A stretch of DNA of 23,464 nt, taken from positions 16,885-40,348 of the forward strand of contig CAZELK010000008.1 in the NCBI GenBank assembly GCA_964513145.1. Direction: 5' to 3'. This document shows positions 2,789 through 23,464 of the stretch, one piece after another; the stretch's first letter is position 1; each line of letters starts with the position of its first letter. Both the position numbers and the translations under genes were made by a program. This DNA is from Candidatus Woesearchaeota archaeon (GTDB lineage: Archaea > Nanobdellota > Nanobdellia > SCGC-AAA011-G17 > JACPIM01). The notes below the pieces were generated by a model. It was not told the DNA's origin. It did no database searches and saw only the letters and a program-made list of their open reading frames with translations.

Positions 2789-3858
2789 GTTGTTTCCTTA
2801 AGGGTTTTTATAATATAATCAAGATCATTTTTTGTCAAGCTTGGGTGTATAGGCAAAGACAAAACTTTTCCTGAAACTCTTTGCGAAACTTCCAAACCAT
2901 TTCCATTATATCCAAGTTTTTTGTAAAAAGGTTGCTCAAAAATTGGTTTTGGATAAAATATATCTGCTTTTATTTCCTTTTCATGAAGTTTTTTCAAAAC
3001 ATTGTCCCTATTATCTATCATTATAGTGAACTGGTGAAAAACATGTTTGTGGTTTTGCGGAATGCTTGGCAAAATAATTTTTGTGTCTTTTAAATTTCTT
3101 ATTAAATAATCAGCATTTTTCATTCTCTTTTTATTAAACTCATTTAATTTTTTTAATTGTTCTATCCCTATAGCTGCAGCAATATTTGTCATCCTAAAAT
3201 TAAGACCAAAAATTTCATGATTATATCTTATTTTTGATCCATGACTTATTATCATTTTTGATTTTTCGAAGATATTTTGGTTGTTTGTAGTAATCATCCC
3301 ACCCTCACCAGTCATCATGTTCTTTGTCGGGTAAAAAGAAAAACATCCAGTTCCGAATGAACCGGCTTTTTTGCCTTTAAACTCAGCCCCATGTGCCTGC
3401 GCATTGTCCTCAATTAAAATCAAGTTATTGTCATTTGCTATTTTGCAAATTTTATCCATGTCGGGAGTTAAACCAAAAAGAGAAACTGAAACTATTGCTT
3501 TTGTTTTATTATTTATATTTTCTTTTATTAAATCAGGATTTATATTAAAAGTTCTTTCTTCTATATCAACAAAAACTGGTTTTGCTCCAACAGACAAGAT
3601 AGAATTTGCGCTCGCTATAAAAGTAAATGGTGTTGTAATAACTTCATCGCCATTTCCTATTCCATGAGCAATTAAAGAAGTTTGCAATGCAGTAGTTCCA
3701 GAAGAAGTTGCTATAGCATATTTTGTACCAATGTATTTAGCAAAATTTTCTTCAAATTCCTGGACATTTTTCCCCTGAGCCAGCATCCCTGACTTTAGTA
3801 CATCAATAACTGCCTTAATTTCCTCTTCTCCTATAATTGGTTTAGCAATGTTTATCAT
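2785..3858 (-). CDS. DegT/DnrJ/EryC1/StrS PLP aminotransferase (WbpE/WlbC-like)
   Basis: SSGTTAL, TPFTFIASAN, IEDNAQAHGA, FSFYPTKNM (PLP lysine) GEGG, NFRMTNIAAA, LSLPIHP. Confidence 0.93.
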   Translation of the reverse strand: MINIAKPIIGEEEIKAVIDVLKSGMLAQGKNVQEFEENFAKYIGTKYAIATSSGTTALQTSLIAHGIGNGDEVITTPFTFIASANSILSVGAKPVFVDIEERTFNINPDLIKENINNKTKAIVSVSLFGLTPDMDKICKIANDNNLILIEDNAQAHGAEFKGKKAGSFGTGCFSFYPTKNMMTGEGGMITTNNQNIFEKSKMIISHGSKIRYNHEIFGLNFRMTNIAAAIGIEQLKKLNEFNKKRMKNADYLIRNLKDTKIILPSIPQNHKHVFHQFTIMIDNRDNVLKKLHEKEIKADIFYPKPIFEQPFYKKLGYNGNGLEVSQRVSGKVLSLPIHPSLTKNDLDYIIKTLKETT

Positions 3859-18541: not shown

Positions 18542-18979
18542 ATGGGGAAAAAATCCAAGGGCTTAGGGTCAGGAAAGAAATTAAAAGTTAGAAGAAAAAA
18601 GTACAGATGGAATAATAAATGGTTTACTAGAAGAGCCCTGGATTTAAAGAAAAAATCAGATCCAATGGAAGGATCTTGTGCTGCTAAAGCAATAGTTCTT
18701 GAAAAGAGACAAGTTGAAGCTAAGCAGCCAAATTCGGCAATGAGAAAGGCTGTAAAATGCCAATTGACAAAAAACGGCAGACAGATTACTGCTTTTGTTC
18801 CTGGATATAATGCCATAAAATTTATAGATGAACATGATGAGATTATTGTTGAAGGACTTGGCGGAATTTATGGAAAAGCAAAAGGCGATATTCCGGGAAT
18901 CAGATGGAAGGTTTCCAAAGTTAATGATCAAAGTTTGCCTGCATTAGTCAAAGGCAGAATAGAAAAGGGAAGAAGATAA
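18542..18979 (+). CDS. rps12: 30S ribosomal protein S12
   Basis: [27 protein letters not shown]. Confidence 0.97.
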
Positions 18980-19578
18980 TGACTAAAATTCTTTTATTTA
19001 ACAAATGGGACACAAGCGAGATAACAGTTACAGATCCTGGAATTAAGGAATATATAAACTTAAAACCTATTTTTGTTCCAAAGACTGGCGGAAAGAATGT
19101 AAAAATAAAATTTCACAAAAGCAAAAATAATATTGTTGAAAGACTGGCAAATAAATTAATGACTCCAGGACACAGAAGCAAGGAACACAGAATAACTTCA
19201 GGGTATTGCACTGGAAAAAGTTTGACAGCACTAAAAATTGTAAAAAGTGCTTTTGAGATTATAGAAAAAAAATTAAATCAAAATCCTATAAAAGTTTTTG
19301 TCAAGGCTGTAGAAAATTCTGCTCCAAGGGAAGAAATTACTTCTATTGAATATGGCGGTGCGCGTTATCCACAGGCTGTTGATTGTTCGCCGCAGAGAAG
19401 AATTGATGTTGCCTTAAGATTAATGACACAAGGCGCATACCAGAAGGCTTTTAGAAGCAAGCAAACAGCAGATGAATGCTTGGCAGATGAGATAATGAAA
19501 GCTTTTCAGATGGACAATAAGTCTACTGCAATTGCAAAAAAATTAGAGTTAGAAAGACAAGCTGAAGCAAGCAGATAA
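18979..19578 (+). CDS. rps7: 30S ribosomal protein S7
   Basis: NIVERL, NPIKVFVKAVENSAPREE, AVDCSPQRRID, LERQAEASR. Confidence 0.97.
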   Translation: MTKILLFNKWDTSEITVTDPGIKEYINLKPIFVPKTGGKNVKIKFHKSKNNIVERLANKLMTPGHRSKEHRITSGYCTGKSLTALKIVKSAFEIIEKKLNQNPIKVFVKAVENSAPREEITSIEYGGARYPQAVDCSPQRRIDVALRLMTQGAYQKAFRSKQTADECLADEIMKAFQMDNKSTAIAKKLELERQAEASR

Positions 19579-19648
19579 AAAATAATTTTGCCTTTCGTTT
19601 GTTTGAGTGAATTTAGTGCTTATAGGCTTTCTTTGTTTTTTACCCCCT
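19573..19648 (+). repeat. imperfect direct repeat, copy 1 (left boundary of islet)
   Basis: AGATAAAAAATAATTTTG matches 23283-23300 at 17/18; TTATAGGCTTTCTTTGTTTTTTACCCCCT matches 23336-23364 at 27/29. Confidence 0.8.
19628..19641 (+). terminator. oligo-T terminator candidate after rps7
   Basis: TTTCTTTGTTTTTT about 50 nt after the rps7 stop; archaeal terminators are T-tracts. Confidence 0.4.
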
Positions 19649-19666
19649 ATTTTCGTTATAAATTAA

Positions 19667-19709
19667 GCAGACAGATTTTTTTATTGGTTTGTCTGCCAGA
19701 ACTATTCTG
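19667..19709. other. two adjacent inverted repeats (GCAGACAGA-N12-TTTGTCTGC; CAGAA-CTA-TTCTG)
   Basis: 9-bp stem with one G-T pair followed directly by a 5-bp inverted repeat, between the convergent rps7 and islet genes. Confidence 0.4.
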
Positions 19710-19901
19710 ACAATTATATTAAGAATTACATTGTAAATAAATATGATAATGAGAGAGAAAAACAAGAGGATTAATTGAGGAAACTTATTGTGAATTGGAA
19801 ATAAAGACTGATATGAAACTAAGATAGATGTAGAAAACCACACCTTTAGATTTAGGAACTGTTTAAGACAATATGAAGATTGAAGATTTTTATTAGGCGA
19901 A

Positions 19902-21269
19902 CTACAAATCGATATTATACATAGTAAGTTCTTTCAAAAGTGCTTCATTATTGGTAAAAAGGAGGGTGTGCATTCCTGCTTTTTGAGCAGGAACAATATC
20001 CTTATCTTCACTATCTCCAACATAGATTATTTCATTCGGATTGAGTCCTGATTTTTGGATTGCTTGATTAAAAATGTCAAGGTCAGGCTTCATTTTTCCA
20101 ATTTCAAAGGAAGGAATTAAATAATCAAAGCAAGATAATATTCCGAGTTTGTTAAGAATTTTTATTGTAAATTGGTCAACATTCGCAATAAGCCCTATCT
20201 TGAATCCTTTAACTTTTAAATTCATGAGGAGTTGTTTTGTTCCTTCAAAGAGTTCTGACTTGTTTATCAAGTCGTTAATGAACTCTTGTTCTTCCCAGAT
20301 GAACTTGGCAGAGTTTTGAGGTTTGATTTTGGATGTGAGTTCTTTTAGTGCGGATGGCAAGTCTTTGTTTTTTCGAAGGAGGAAGATTTCATTAAATATT
20401 TTAGAGTATTCTTTTGGTGTTAGCGAAATATGATGTTTTGCAAGAAACGCTGATAAATCTATTGTTTCAAGGAAGCTTCTTTTAAGCAGTGTGCCAGAAA
20501 GGTCAAAGAATACTGCTTTGATTTTGTGTTTTGTAATTTCAATTTTGTCGCCTATTCGTATGTTTTTTTCTGAAGCCAAGTTTTGCCTTACTTTAGCTAC
20601 TTCAAGAAGCCCACCAAGTGAGCTTCCGTGATAAAGTGTGAGTGTTCCTGTATCTAAATCCATGAAACGTTCGCTTACTATGGCCTGACCAATACTTTTA
20701 CCGTTGTGTTTAACTTCATAAAATATTCCTTTTTCTATTTTTGGATTGCTGTGTATTTTTGGATTTCCAAAATTATCAATGTGAACTACTGTGTTTTCCT
20801 GAATGACAATTCTCTTAAGCTTATTGATTTCAAAAGGTTCTCCAATTTTTTCAATCTTTTCTTCATCTAATAATTGTACAAGAATTGGACAGTATGCATC
20901 GCGTCCTCCAAAGGGAGATATTGATTGTCGTTTGACATTACGTACTACTTTTATCTTGAAGTCATCTAGAATCCATGTGAGAGTTCCATTGTTTCCTGCT
21001 ACAAAAGTGTGACCTTTAGTAGTTTGTACAACAATTCTCTCGTGACGTTCCTTGTTGGGTGAGCATAATATGAAGAAAATTGTTTCTGGAGGAAACACAT
21101 CGCACAATAGTCTACTCAGGAACGCTGCATTAGTAATGGAGAATTTCTCAACAGAGACTATTGGTGCGATTTCAACGTTTGGGTTTTTAATCAACTTCTT
21201 TAAAGTGCCGAACAGTTCCACTGCTGCGACATCGGCACAATCAGTTATTATGACTACTTCCTTTTTCAT
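19902..21269 (-). CDS. fusion protein: divergent SAM-dependent halogenase/SAM hydroxide adenosyltransferase (DUF62) domain + C-terminal HAD hydrolase
   Basis: Residues 1-~247: IITD, SITNAAF, FPPETIF, FVAGNNGTL, PFGGRDAYCP, VVHIDNFGN, GSSLGGLLEVA, IGDKI. Residues ~248-455: FFDLSGTL, GLIAN, KMKPD, YVGDSEDKDI. Confidence 0.85.
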   Translation of the reverse strand: MKKEVVIITDCADVAAVELFGTLKKLIKNPNVEIAPIVSVEKFSITNAAFLSRLLCDVFPPETIFFILCSPNKERHERIVVQTTKGHTFVAGNNGTLTWILDDFKIKVVRNVKRQSISPFGGRDAYCPILVQLLDEEKIEKIGEPFEINKLKRIVIQENTVVHIDNFGNPKIHSNPKIEKGIFYEVKHNGKSIGQAIVSERFMDLDTGTLTLYHGSSLGGLLEVAKVRQNLASEKNIRIGDKIEITKHKIKAVFFDLSGTLLKRSFLETIDLSAFLAKHHISLTPKEYSKIFNEIFLLRKNKDLPSALKELTSKIKPQNSAKFIWEEQEFINDLINKSELFEGTKQLLMNLKVKGFKIGLIANVDQFTIKILNKLGILSCFDYLIPSFEIGKMKPDLDIFNQAIQKSGLNPNEIIYVGDSEDKDIVPAQKAGMHTLLFTNNEALLKELTMYNIDL

Positions 21270-22129
21270 TGGGAAACTCCTACATTTGCAAGTTGTTTAA
21301 GTTTGTGGAGAAGTTTATCAGTTGTAATTGCTTGCGATTCAACAACATATGTTAAATCTTCTTTAGCCATTCGGTCTTCAATAAGACTATACAACTTTAT
21401 AAGAGGAAGCCGATGATTTCCTATTTTCCACAAGAATGCTTCATCAAGATTATCAAGTGTTAACAGCTCGTCAAGTGCTTTCACAAGCGGACGTTCAAGT
21501 TTGAAATAGAATTTTTTATGTGCTTGCTCTTCAACGTGACTCATTAGTTCTTTTACTGCTTGTGCATTGCTCAGAGGTGAAGCAAGCTCCTCTTCAGTGA
21601 ATCCTGTATGAAGATAAACTCGTTCTTGAAGATATCTTCTAGAATCTGGCTTGCCTGCCATTGCAAGACTTTTATGAATATACATCAACAGTGGTGCAGA
21701 AGGAGTCTCGGGAGTTTGCAATAAATAATTTTCTTCATCACATAACCAAATTTTACGCTTTGCGACATCAGTCCATAGGTCAACATGACGTTTTAGATTA
21801 ATTGGAATACCGTACTGTGCTTTGAACATATTGTTTAATTCTGTACAAAAGTCGTTAAGTTCTCCCCAGCTCGCACTTTGGAAATTCGTGCATAATGTAT
21901 ACGCCTCTGAGAAAAAACCCCTGATTGACCCGAGCCAATGGCGATATCGAGCAAGATATTCTTCAGGAGGCAACAATATTAAATCTTTATCACTTTGCTT
22001 TTTTTGCTCATCATTCCTTGATATTATTTTAATCTTAGAAAATTGCCTTATCTCATCAGAAGTCATCAGAGTATCTAGTGTAAAGACTGGAAGCATTGGC
22101 ATTTGTGGAAACAAAACAGCAGAGTTCAT
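21266..22129 (-). CDS. hypothetical protein (287 aa), no family recognised
   Basis: Long ORF coupled by ATGA overlaps on both sides; helical, soluble composition. Confidence 0.8.
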   Translation of the reverse strand: MNSAVLFPQMPMLPVFTLDTLMTSDEIRQFSKIKIISRNDEQKKQSDKDLILLPPEEYLARYRHWLGSIRGFFSEAYTLCTNFQSASWGELNDFCTELNNMFKAQYGIPINLKRHVDLWTDVAKRKIWLCDEENYLLQTPETPSAPLLMYIHKSLAMAGKPDSRRYLQERVYLHTGFTEEELASPLSNAQAVKELMSHVEEQAHKKFYFKLERPLVKALDELLTLDNLDEAFLWKIGNHRLPLIKLYSLIEDRMAKEDLTYVVESQAITTDKLLHKLKQLANVGVSQ

Positions 22130-23049
22130 TGCTTCACATATCCTCGTTTAAACCACTCTTTGAGTTTGTTCATTGTAAATTTCATGGTTGGTTTTCCTTC
22201 GTAACATTTATCATGGTTAAGTGCATGGCTTTTTGTATCTGCAAAGAATGCAGAGAGTAGTGAGAAATATTTCTTTACTTCTTCTGCTGTTGGGGTGAAT
22301 ACTTGGTTTACTGATTCAGCTTGTTTAGGGTGAATTATTTGTTTTCCAGTTACGCCTATTCTTTTTCCGAATTCACACTCTTTGACAAGTGTTGCGAGGT
22401 CGTTAAATCTACGATATGGTGTATCTAAGACATCAATACCTTGAAGCTTTGCTGCTCTGATTATGTCACAAAGCGCGGTTGTGAGCAGAGGATTTTCATA
22501 CGTGGGACTTCGTTCAATTCCTAGTTCCATTGATAAATCTCCTGCTCCGAACGCAAGTGCATCACCTTCTGATAAAACTTGGGATATATCTCTTATGTTA
22601 TACCAGCCACGCAAAGTTTCAACGAGTGCTATTCTTTTAACGCTCTTTGGAAGAATTTTTGTAATTGTTTCAACTTCTTCAGGTGAATTTATTTTAGTGA
22701 GCATAAATGTGTCAAATTTATAATTTGCTTGTTCAACATCTTGTTTCCAAATTCCTGAATCAGCAGAGTTAATGCGAAGAATATATTCTACTCCTTGTCT
22801 TTTTTGAGGTATGCACAAAATATTTTTTCGTGCATCTTCTTTTTTGTCAAGGGGGATGCTGTCTTCAAGGTCAAATATAACACTATCAATTTGAGTTTTG
22901 TCAAGTTTTTCAAAAAATTCAGGCTTGACTAAAGGCACATAGAGAAGTGAGCGGCGTTTATAGGTGGTAGTGTGCGTCGCCACAACATCTGCTACTTTGG
23001 TCTCTACTTCAAAGGTTGTTTGCGTTGGGGTGTAGATTAACTTTGTCAT
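22126..23049 (-). CDS. HpcH/HpaI aldolase-citrate lyase family (CitE/malyl-CoA lyase-like), 307 aa
   Basis: RRSLLYVP, IFDLEDS, LRINS, LVET, FGAGDL, GKQIIHPKQ, VFTPT; start placed at ATG 23049 because the upstream TTG/GTG lie in a GGTGA Shine-Dalgarno (23055-23059). Confidence 0.9.
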   Translation of the reverse strand: MTKLIYTPTQTTFEVETKVADVVATHTTTYKRRSLLYVPLVKPEFFEKLDKTQIDSVIFDLEDSIPLDKKEDARKNILCIPQKRQGVEYILRINSADSGIWKQDVEQANYKFDTFMLTKINSPEEVETITKILPKSVKRIALVETLRGWYNIRDISQVLSEGDALAFGAGDLSMELGIERSPTYENPLLTTALCDIIRAAKLQGIDVLDTPYRRFNDLATLVKECEFGKRIGVTGKQIIHPKQAESVNQVFTPTAEEVKKYFSLLSAFFADTKSHALNHDKCYEGKPTMKFTMNKLKEWFKRGYVKQ

Positions 23050-23094
23050 AATATTCACCAAATAAAAATTTAATTATTGTTAAGTAATAAATAG

Positions 23095-23102
23095 TATATA
23101 AA
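23095..23102 (-). promoter_or_regulatory. TATA box (TTTATATA) for the islet operon
   Basis: Consensus box about 45 nt upstream of ATG 23049, leaving room for a short SD-containing leader. Confidence 0.5.
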
Positions 23103-23109
23103 CGTTCGC

Positions 23110-23180
23110 TTGGTACTGTCCTAATATAGAAATGTTAAATAAGTGAGCGGAAATCTGCGAGCTTTTAGCTCGCGTACCAA
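23110..23180. other. nested inverted-repeat element: TTGGTAC...GTACCAA enclosing hairpin GCGAGCT-TTT-AGCTCGC
   Basis: Two perfect 7-bp stems (23110-23116/23174-23180 and 23157-23163/23167-23173). Confidence 0.5.
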
Positions 23181-23282
23181 CCTTTAGATTGGAGATGGAT
23201 AGCGATAAATATTCTTTCTCTTTATTATTCTTGTAGTAAAATGATGTGTCCCACAAGAAGGTGAGGCAACATGTTATATTAT

Positions 23283-23364
23283 AGATAAATAATAATTTTG
23301 TCTCTTGTTGTTTTGCCATTAATATTAATTTATGTTTATAGGCTTTCTCTGTTTTTTACCTCCT
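23283..23364 (+). repeat. imperfect direct repeat, copy 2 (right boundary of islet)
   Basis: Matches 19573-19648; the spacer between the two conserved blocks is 6 nt longer. Confidence 0.8.
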
Positions 23365-23464
23365 TTATAAACGTTTATAAAAAACACTACATTTGTAATT
23401 TTCTTAAAGGGCTCTGGTGCAATCCTCTGATAATTATAATAAGATAATTTAGCTTTCTGTCTAA

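Follow-up and report, generated by a model that had tools for sequence, protein, structure and literature searches.

How a three-gene operon of foreign appearance came to stand behind a conserved ribosomal gene block, and what its products would do there, is the question raised by the end of one contig from a tiny archaeon of symbiotic type (Candidatus Woesearchaeota). The DNA analysed here (the window, 23,464 nucleotides) is the final 23.5 kb of contig C8, and the source assembly comprises 0.98 Mb in 18 contigs, with a guanine plus cytosine (GC) content of 29% and an estimated completeness of 98.8%. The operon is predicted to encode a CitE/HpcH-type lyase-like protein, a protein of an undescribed family that we call X, and a fusion of a divergent DUF62-like domain (clade DUF62*) to a HAD-superfamily domain. 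We hold, with about even confidence, that this is a recently acquired and trimmed small-molecule cassette working on an acyl-thioester and an adenosyl compound, rather than a housekeeping or a defence system. The acquisition itself is the firmer part of this answer and is treated first.

The operon and its arrival

The features of the islet and its borders are as follows, those of the operon standing first.

22126..23049, minus strand: CitE/HpcH-type Mg-dependent acyl-CoA C-C lyase-like protein, 307 aa (PF03328, 128 bits)
21266..22129, minus strand: protein X, 287 aa, undescribed all-alpha family (no family match)
20526..21269, minus strand: DUF62-like (SAM_HAT) domain of the fusion, divergent clade DUF62* (Pfam PF01887, PF20257)
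19902..20522, minus strand: HAD-superfamily domain of the fusion, residues about 250-455, non-canonical (Pfam HAD_2 4.1e-22, Hydrolase 2.9e-21)
23055..23102, minus strand: region with the putative promoter and ribosome-binding site of the operon (by inspection of the sequence)
18979..19578, plus strand: rps7, ribosomal protein S7 (Pfam Ribosomal_S7 4.5e-41), last gene of the native RNA polymerase-L30e-NusA-S12-S7 block
19573..19648, no strand: left direct-repeat copy, about 76-82 nt, imperfect (repeat search and alignment)
23283..23364, no strand: right direct-repeat copy (repeat search and alignment)
23410..23464, no strand: terminus of a multicopy IS5-like insertion sequence (IS), within which the contig stops (contig-end identity)

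Three co-directional open reading frames (ORFs) on the minus strand (22126-23061, 21266-22129 and 19902-21269) form the trio; the lyase ORF opens at 23061, and the ATG at 23049 was judged the likelier start. Both junctions read CAATGAA, with a 4-nt ATGA overlap of stop and start codons, and both internal start codons are preceded by AGGAG or GAGG motifs. Upstream of the lyase gene, an element resembling a Shine-Dalgarno (SD) sequence, GGTGA, lies at 23059-23055, 5 nt ahead of the ATG, and reading of the sequence revealed a TATA-like TTTATATA at 23102-23095, which may serve as a putative archaeal promoter. This layout supports a compact module, predicted to be co-transcribed and translationally coupled. 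The first-pass annotation of the window had described the same operon, with these junctions and with one promoter and SD; ORF calling, Pfam and NCBIfam matches and the sequence itself confirm the gene order and both upstream elements, the first of these with a predicted promoter role.

The same annotation had taken the operon for foreign from its CGN arginine codons and from a GC content that looked higher by eye, and counting upheld both impressions. Against a genome-wide baseline of 833 long ORFs, CGN codons account for 7 of 12, 8 of 13 and 8 of 14 arginine codons in the three genes (57-62%) versus 9.4% genome-wide, and in a ranking limited to the 485 genes with at least 8 arginine codons the operon genes take places 1, 2 and 3; for the pooled 23 of 39 codons the binomial tail is 2e-14. 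The GC content of the operon genes is 0.35-0.37 versus a genome mean of 0.29 (z = 1.5-2.1). The codon and tetranucleotide analysis that had been proposed as a check agrees, since the genes stand 8th, 10th and 11th of 533 by synonymous-codon likelihood (z about -3.2) and the tetranucleotide distance of the operon falls within the top 2% of 3.2-kb windows. The most atypical region of the genome by composition is a different one, at 3.5-24 kb of contig C1, where GC rises up to 0.48 and codon-usage likelihoods are lowest; this could be a second foreign island, or else the rRNA operon with ORFs called in it.

The operon sits in an islet of about 3.7 kb that begins at the stop codon of rps7, the end of a plus-strand block running from 7.7 to 19.6 kb (archaeal RNA polymerase subunit genes, then L30e, NusA, S12 and S7). 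The islet is framed by direct repeats, the left copy of which opens at the last sense codon and stop of rps7; two collinear blocks can be aligned (D2, 32 nt, 91%; D3, 33 nt, 82%) at a spacing of 3710-3716, and the pair occurs nowhere else in the 0.98-Mb genome. Two relatives (G060 and G142) carry a single related copy 3' of rps7, and therefore the repeat is a native intergenic element that became duplicated around the insert. As an RNA gene it had no Rfam match, and tblastn gave no support for a remnant of the rps7 3' end within the right copy. Besides the operon, the islet holds two minus-strand ORFs of 67 and 79 aa (19640-19843 and 23080-23319), the second beginning within the right repeat; neither matches Pfam or any other family, and they are probably not genes. 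A Pfam scan found no integrase, recombinase or transfer gene within the islet. The insertion probably arose by recombination, the arriving DNA having brought with it its own, diverged version of the intergenic element.

Only 45 nt separate the right repeat from the IS5-like element. Seven contig ends in the assembly share its terminal 53 nt (GGCTCTGGTGCAATCC...) without a difference (both ends of C8, and C3, C6, C10, C13 and C17), with a diverged copy at a C1 end, and in the relative G142 an 80%-identical copy of this terminus abuts a 272-aa DDE_Tnp_1/DUF772 transposase gene. By these matches the contig end is the terminus of an active multicopy IS5-like element. This multicopy element is apparently what fragments the assembly, from which its interior is missing. 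A chimeric join was considered and rejected, since the sequence on either side is native (rps7 to the left, the IS end to the right); an identical CitE-like protein is also present in 4 further sequencing runs.

Comparison with relatives places the islet in a spacer of changing content. S7 of this genome is 64-78% identical to S7 of five genomes of the same family, and in these close relatives (two from its genus, three from its family) other genes occupy the stretch after rps7. Within the genus the order is rps7, one or two unrelated small genes, a gene of 551-562 aa and EF-2, with no islet; homologues of the 551-562-aa gene and EF-2 sit at a C1 contig end in the present genome. Since relatives carry other genes between rps7 and EF-2, the spacer is naturally variable. 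Across a phylum sample of 401 genomes, this one (G000) included, X had no credible match in the 400 others, the five close relatives among them, while full-length CitE-like genes were found in this genome and about 2 others and strong DUF62* matches in this genome and 1 other. Beyond the variable spacer, EF-2 occurs in forms of about 727 and about 874 aa within one 90%-identity cluster (relatives L019 and L020), and the present genome has an 872-aa ORF at the EF-2 site (C1, about 211.4-214.0 kb, reverse strand); EF-2 may contain an intein or some other inserted element.

Taken together, the composition, the repeats, the neighbouring IS and the lack of the islet in relatives make horizontal acquisition of the islet by this DPANN genome well supported, as the first-pass annotation had proposed for a compact module. 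The islet resembles other islets at operon ends in DPANN and candidate phyla radiation (CPR) genomes in its atypical composition, its absence from sister genomes, its direct repeats and adjacent IS, and its location, a spacer of changing content that separates conserved ribosomal genes from EF-2; it differs from them in having neither an integrase nor a tRNA target, and in repeats that are themselves diverged copies of an intergenic element native to the genome.

The three proteins

The lyase is the sole gene of its family in the genome (HpcH_HpaI, PF03328, 128.2 bits versus a cut-off of 25). It carries DLEDS at residues 60-64, E144 (in VETLRG), D171 (in GAGDL) and a GKQ-IHP motif; the first three align with DCEDGV, VETAMG and GGEDF of CLYBL and are invariant in the lyase-family alignment A5. 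The positions of E144 and D171 are those of the metal ligands in CitE structures. The nearest solved structures are CLYBL (5vxc) and a RipC-type protein (3qll), identity to Escherichia coli CitE is 31%, and the equivalog models score below their cut-offs (CitE TIGR01588, 105 versus 443; RipC NF038242, 123 versus 375). The protein shares with human CLYBL (citramalyl-CoA lyase), Yersinia RipC, malyl-CoA lyase and the citrate lyase beta subunit the HpcH_HpaI TIM barrel, DLED, Glu144/Asp171 and GKQxIHP. Unlike those enzymes it is paired with X, and within the operon, the part of the genome covered by this search, there is no citD, citF, citG or citX and no coenzyme A (CoA) transferase or hydratase gene. 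The closest CitE-like protein found, at 46% identity, is the HpcH protein that precedes an X homologue at locus L008, the sole X-linked CitE-like relative with a readable sequence; the C-terminal tail YEGKP...RGY-K is shared in full only with this protein.

Protein X belongs to a family of six members, none of which has a Pfam, NCBIfam, PHROG or PADLOC match. A word-indexed search returned no relative; the five relatives (25-38% identity) were recovered when 1.84 billion representative proteins were compared exhaustively with phmmer. No further X loci turned up when JGI metagenomes, GTDB genomes and IMG/VR were scanned by pattern, and tblastn found none in phage and plasmid collections. Eleven positions are invariant in all six members (P55, F102, K113, T139, L223, D226, N227, E230, W234, Y247 and D271), among which K113, T139, D226-N227-x-x-E230, Y247 and D271 resemble an active or ligand site. 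The AlphaFold2 model is all-helical, with a predicted local distance difference test score of 89 and a predicted template modelling score of 0.86, and on this model X is a previously undescribed, confidently folded all-alpha family. Several identities were tried and set aside: Foldseek against the PDB and BFVD returned nothing at E < 0.1; the best VIA-align hit, the rifampin-binding domain of rifampin phosphotransferase (Z 6.4), lies below the chance level for helical proteins; a metallopeptidase likeness in the ESM-Atlas (scores up to 0.89, low recognition) was discarded; and hhalign gave probabilities of 0.4% for a divergent CitG and 0.2% for a relationship to the phosphoenolpyruvate (PEP)-utiliser proteins that adjoin DUF62* genes.

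The third gene is a 455-aa ORF in which a DUF62 domain is joined to a HAD domain with no linker, a fusion found nowhere beyond this genome. DUF62 proteins act on S-adenosylmethionine (SAM), and the domain is recognised by SAM_HAT_N (PF01887, 57.6 bits, cut-off 26.3) and, as a borderline match exactly at the cut-off of 25.5, by SAM_HAT_C (PF20257, 25.5 bits); the (R)-SAM hydrolase model NF058624 gives 37.2 bits versus a cut-off of 350. A profile of the DUF62* clade matches DUF62 proteins of the PDB at 2e-17 to 4e-10, and FlA at E = 0.32 over about 70 aligned residues. DUF62 hydrolases strictly conserve a His-Arg-Asp triad, which halogenases lack (PMC10491745). In the fusion, the Asp is replaced by Ser70 and the His by Gly121, and Arg78 is kept, consistently across alignments with 2zbu, MJ1651 and PH0463 and in the 7-member clade alignment A4; the rest of the clade, whose members are 36-39% identical to the islet domain, has Asn at the triad Asp position. 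By these residues the domain is not a canonical SAM hydrolase. Halogenation is neither supported nor excluded. With the SAM hydroxide adenosyltransferases, or (R)-SAM hydrolases, PH0463, MJ1651 and StDUF62 the domain shares the two-domain SAM_HAT fold and the TD..., GRD, DNFG and GSS-G-LE motifs; it differs from them in the broken triad and the HAD fusion, and its clade occurs in biosynthetic-looking cassettes instead of standing alone.

The HAD half is non-canonical as well. It scores 79.6 bits with HAD_2 and 77.2 with Hydrolase, and its best NCBIfam model, TIGR02253, gives 105 bits versus a cut-off of 170. HAD proteins carry DxDx(T/V) as motif I, the second Asp of which is the general acid/base, and Ser/Thr in motif II. 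Here motif I reads D256-L-S258-G-T, with the nucleophile Asp256 present and Ser in place of the second Asp, and motif II L-I-A362-N363, with Ala in place of Ser/Thr, while motif III (K394, in K394-P-D) and motif IV (G-D419-S-E-D422-K-D424) are retained. A comparison HAD protein of the same genome (3912-4541) is canonical at the matching columns (DMDNT, LISN).

Relatives of the DUF62* domain were found among GTDB representatives in Micrarchaeota, Woesearchaeota, several Patescibacteria, Chlamydiae and a few proteobacterial metagenome-assembled genomes; most belong to host-dependent lineages (CPR, DPANN, Chlamydiae). Three conserved settings recur. In the first (L003, L110, L115, L118, L026), a Gmk-like kinase, an AsnB-like amidotransferase and an unknown protein of about 580 aa come with DUF62*, which is followed by a radical-SAM or enolase-like protein, a Sulfotransfer_3-like protein and CysD/CysNC; the second (L114, L120, L121, L119) comprises a PEP-utiliser, Ldh_2 (ComC family), DUF62*, a HIT-like protein and PEP mutase. 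In the third, the archaeal members (L109, L146, L024) directly follow TyrRS/TrpRS-like paralogues. A CitE-like, X or HAD gene stood beside DUF62* at none of the 19 genomic loci. The set for 3'-phosphoadenosine 5'-phosphosulfate (PAPS) and sulfotransfer in the first setting recalls the PAPS/sulfotransferase genes of 5'-O-sulfamoyl-adenosine antibiotic clusters (PMC10946740). Taken as a whole, these settings look biosynthetic rather than housekeeping and support a predicted role with an adenosyl or SAM-derived intermediate, and the loss of the water-activating residues in a clade devoid of the triad points to a possible adenosyl-transfer chemistry beyond hydrolysis and halogenation. One may go further and imagine DUF62* as a new class of SAM-dependent 5'-adenosyl transferase, using an anionic nucleophile that is neither water nor halide (for instance a carboxylate, thio-acid, sulfate or phosph(on)ate), which together with the lyase and X would yield an adenosine-organic-acid conjugate. 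Symbionts with reduced genomes would make this "adenylate mimic" independently of ATP and use it as an antimetabolite or an activation handle; we regard this as a speculation with little probability.

Relatives of the cassette

The X homologues stand in the following contexts. On P0046, a 12.3-kb contig of ENA ERZ1761208, the order is alpha/beta hydrolase, HpcH, X, metallo-beta-lactamase (MBL) hydrolase, B12-binding radical-SAM protein and DUF62; rps12 and a NusA-like gene come next, in convergent orientation, and within 4 kb the contig also bears a PemK/MazE pair as well as a PD-(D/E)XK gene. At P0048 (locus L008) the HpcH gene overlaps X by ATGA and a further gene lies 3' of X, and at P0049 (L009/L010) X overlaps a radical-SAM gene, and another protein encoded on this contig bears a type IX secretion system (T9SS) sorting domain. 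On P0050, X is followed by a HAD-family gene, and a thiamine pyrophosphate (TPP)-dependent decarboxylase (Ppd/ComDE-like), a methyltransferase and HADs adjoin; the P0047 contig is too short to give a context. The contigs that bear X range from 24% to 58% GC, and the family is therefore scattered over unrelated organisms.

A CitE-type lyase lies directly upstream of X at 3 of the 6 X loci, the present one included. In the co-occurrence search that the first-pass annotation had proposed, the partial combinations were recovered, CitE-like with X on two other contigs (P0046 and L008), once together with DUF62, and X with HAD once (P0050); the exact trio was found nowhere else, and 80 CitE-like metagenome loci searched with X and DUF62* profiles gave zero positives. 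From these contexts, the CitE-like and X genes form a conserved, co-evolving pair, whose co-occurrence is real but rare, with DUF62, HAD and radical-SAM proteins as recurrent accessories. Literature searches found no description of the three-gene combination, in line with the earlier impression that it was new.

The P0046 cassette stands at the 3' end of a nusA-rps12 block, and the islet follows rps12-rps7. The similar siting may stem from an integration hotspot common to both, from recombination on flanks that are conserved, or from chance.

What the cassette may do

We hypothesize that the operon is a trimmed form of a cassette that is very rare and present in unrelated taxa, and that it would convert a small metabolite. 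The lyase, whose motifs are intact, would break or form a C-C bond of a hydroxy-acyl thioester by Claisen-type cleavage or condensation, with X as a partner subunit that may bind the substrate or take part in catalysis through its Lys/Asp-Asn-x-x-Glu/Tyr/Asp constellation. The DUF62* domain, which would not act as a SAM hydrolase because the water-activating Asp and His are missing, may bind SAM or another adenosyl compound and either transfer the adenosyl group to another nucleophile or merely bind a nucleoside. The HAD domain, with its Asp nucleophile kept and its general acid and motif II hydroxyl gone, would process the product otherwise than by ordinary sugar-phosphate hydrolysis.

Several points weigh against this hypothesis. 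No product can be named, and the enzyme roles are predicted from sequence; the place of X as partner of the lyase derives from adjacency alone, the CitE-X pair being present on only two other contigs and the exact trio on none beyond this genome. The DUF62 gene of P0046 may belong to a clade other than DUF62*. The substitutions in both domains of the fusion could equally mean loss of catalysis. The islet has no integrase or other transfer gene, and its repeats are only 82-91% identical. Moreover, the operon could be a remnant that no longer functions, since it has neither the radical-SAM nor the MBL gene of the fuller cassette.

This last possibility is a serious rival, although we consider it unlikely. 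The operon would then be the decaying residue of a larger radical-SAM cassette whose key enzymes were lost on or after transfer, and it would have no pathway function. It fits the B12-binding radical-SAM and MBL genes that stand between X and DUF62 on P0046, the continuation of L008 past X, the substituted hallmark positions in both fusion domains, and the active IS 45 nt away. Against it, the ORFs are all intact (307, 287 and 455 aa), with precise ATGA overlaps and SD-like motifs in place of scars, and the identical lyase protein recurs in the 4 other runs. The DUF62* substitutions are common to the whole clade, so they are not recent damage, and the 15 radical-SAM genes of the genome could complement the cassette in trans. 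Seven of these 15 matches in 0.98 Mb fall within 32 kb on C1 (76-108 kb), others lying at 13.8-15.8 kb of C8 and elsewhere, and many of the ORFs measure 470-530 aa, a size typical of B12-binding radical-SAM enzymes.

An anti-virus or conflict module, which would deplete or modify SAM or nucleotides during infection or supply a nucleoside antimetabolite against host or competitors, seems to us distinctly improbable. Its appeal lies in a mobile, rare and patchy cassette beside an IS, in the PemK/MazE and PD-(D/E)XK genes close to the P0046 cassette, and in DUF62* relatives that are mostly host-dependent and in part beside PAPS/sulfotransferase genes (PMC10946740). In the islet itself sulfation genes are absent, and no sensor, nuclease or abortive-infection-type effector is encoded. 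The first-pass annotation had allowed for a defence or stress module, for which nothing positive was found: neither X nor the lyase matched PADLOC or PHROG, the HAD domain gave only a generic hydrolase hit in PADLOC, and phage, plasmid and IMG/VR collections contained no homologue.

A further rival is a phosphonate or sulfonate pathway, in which X and the HAD domain would tailor a three-carbon acid of the phosphono- or sulfo-pyruvate type. The lyase does belong to the PEP/pyruvate-domain superfamily, the P0050 homologue of X adjoins the Ppd/ComDE-like decarboxylase, methyltransferase and HADs, DUF62* homologues have PEP mutase, Ldh_2 (ComC family), enolase-like and PEP-utiliser proteins as neighbours, and B12-binding radical-SAM enzymes accompany X elsewhere. 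Nevertheless, this link is made through neighbours of neighbours alone; the genome has no PEP mutase, its sole TPP_enzyme_C match is weak and unlinked, and the lyase bears the CitE-type DLED signature instead of PEP-mutase motifs. We rate this reading as very unlikely.

Finally, the scheme favoured by the first-pass annotation, a SalL/FlA-like halogenase or hydrolase working with a SalN-like HAD and a CitE-type enzyme to make or detoxify a halogenated SAM-derived acyl-CoA precursor, shares with the SalL/SalN and FlA pathways a locus that combines a SAM enzyme of the DUF62 fold with a HAD-family protein and an enzyme acting at the acyl-CoA level, and halogenases too are without the triad that is broken in part here (PMC10491745), but it hardly survives: the clade profile matches fluorinase only at E = 0.32 but DUF62 hydrolases at 1e-10 to 1e-17, the HAD domain has lost the general-acid Asp and motif II Ser/Thr expected of a SalN-like phosphatase, the three-gene operon encodes no purine or other nucleoside phosphorylase, kinase, isomerase, dehydratase or other downstream sugar enzyme of the SalL pathway, and none of the 19 genomic DUF62* loci adjoins a CitE-like or HAD gene.

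Horizontal gene transfer into a DPANN genome is not in itself surprising. What is new is the X family, which travels with CitE-type lyases, radical-SAM enzymes and HAD proteins, and the DUF62 clade that has lost its triad; both are enzymological leads, and the settings of DUF62* may merit a study of their own. Given its extreme rarity, the cassette probably carries little ecological weight, and its value is enzymological. The locus also provides a clean example of insertion at the end of a ribosomal S12-S7 block, probably by recombination at an intergenic element native to the genome. DPANN archaea are generally seen as relying on a minimal, host-dependent metabolism, and a freshly acquired cassette shows what such cells find worth importing.

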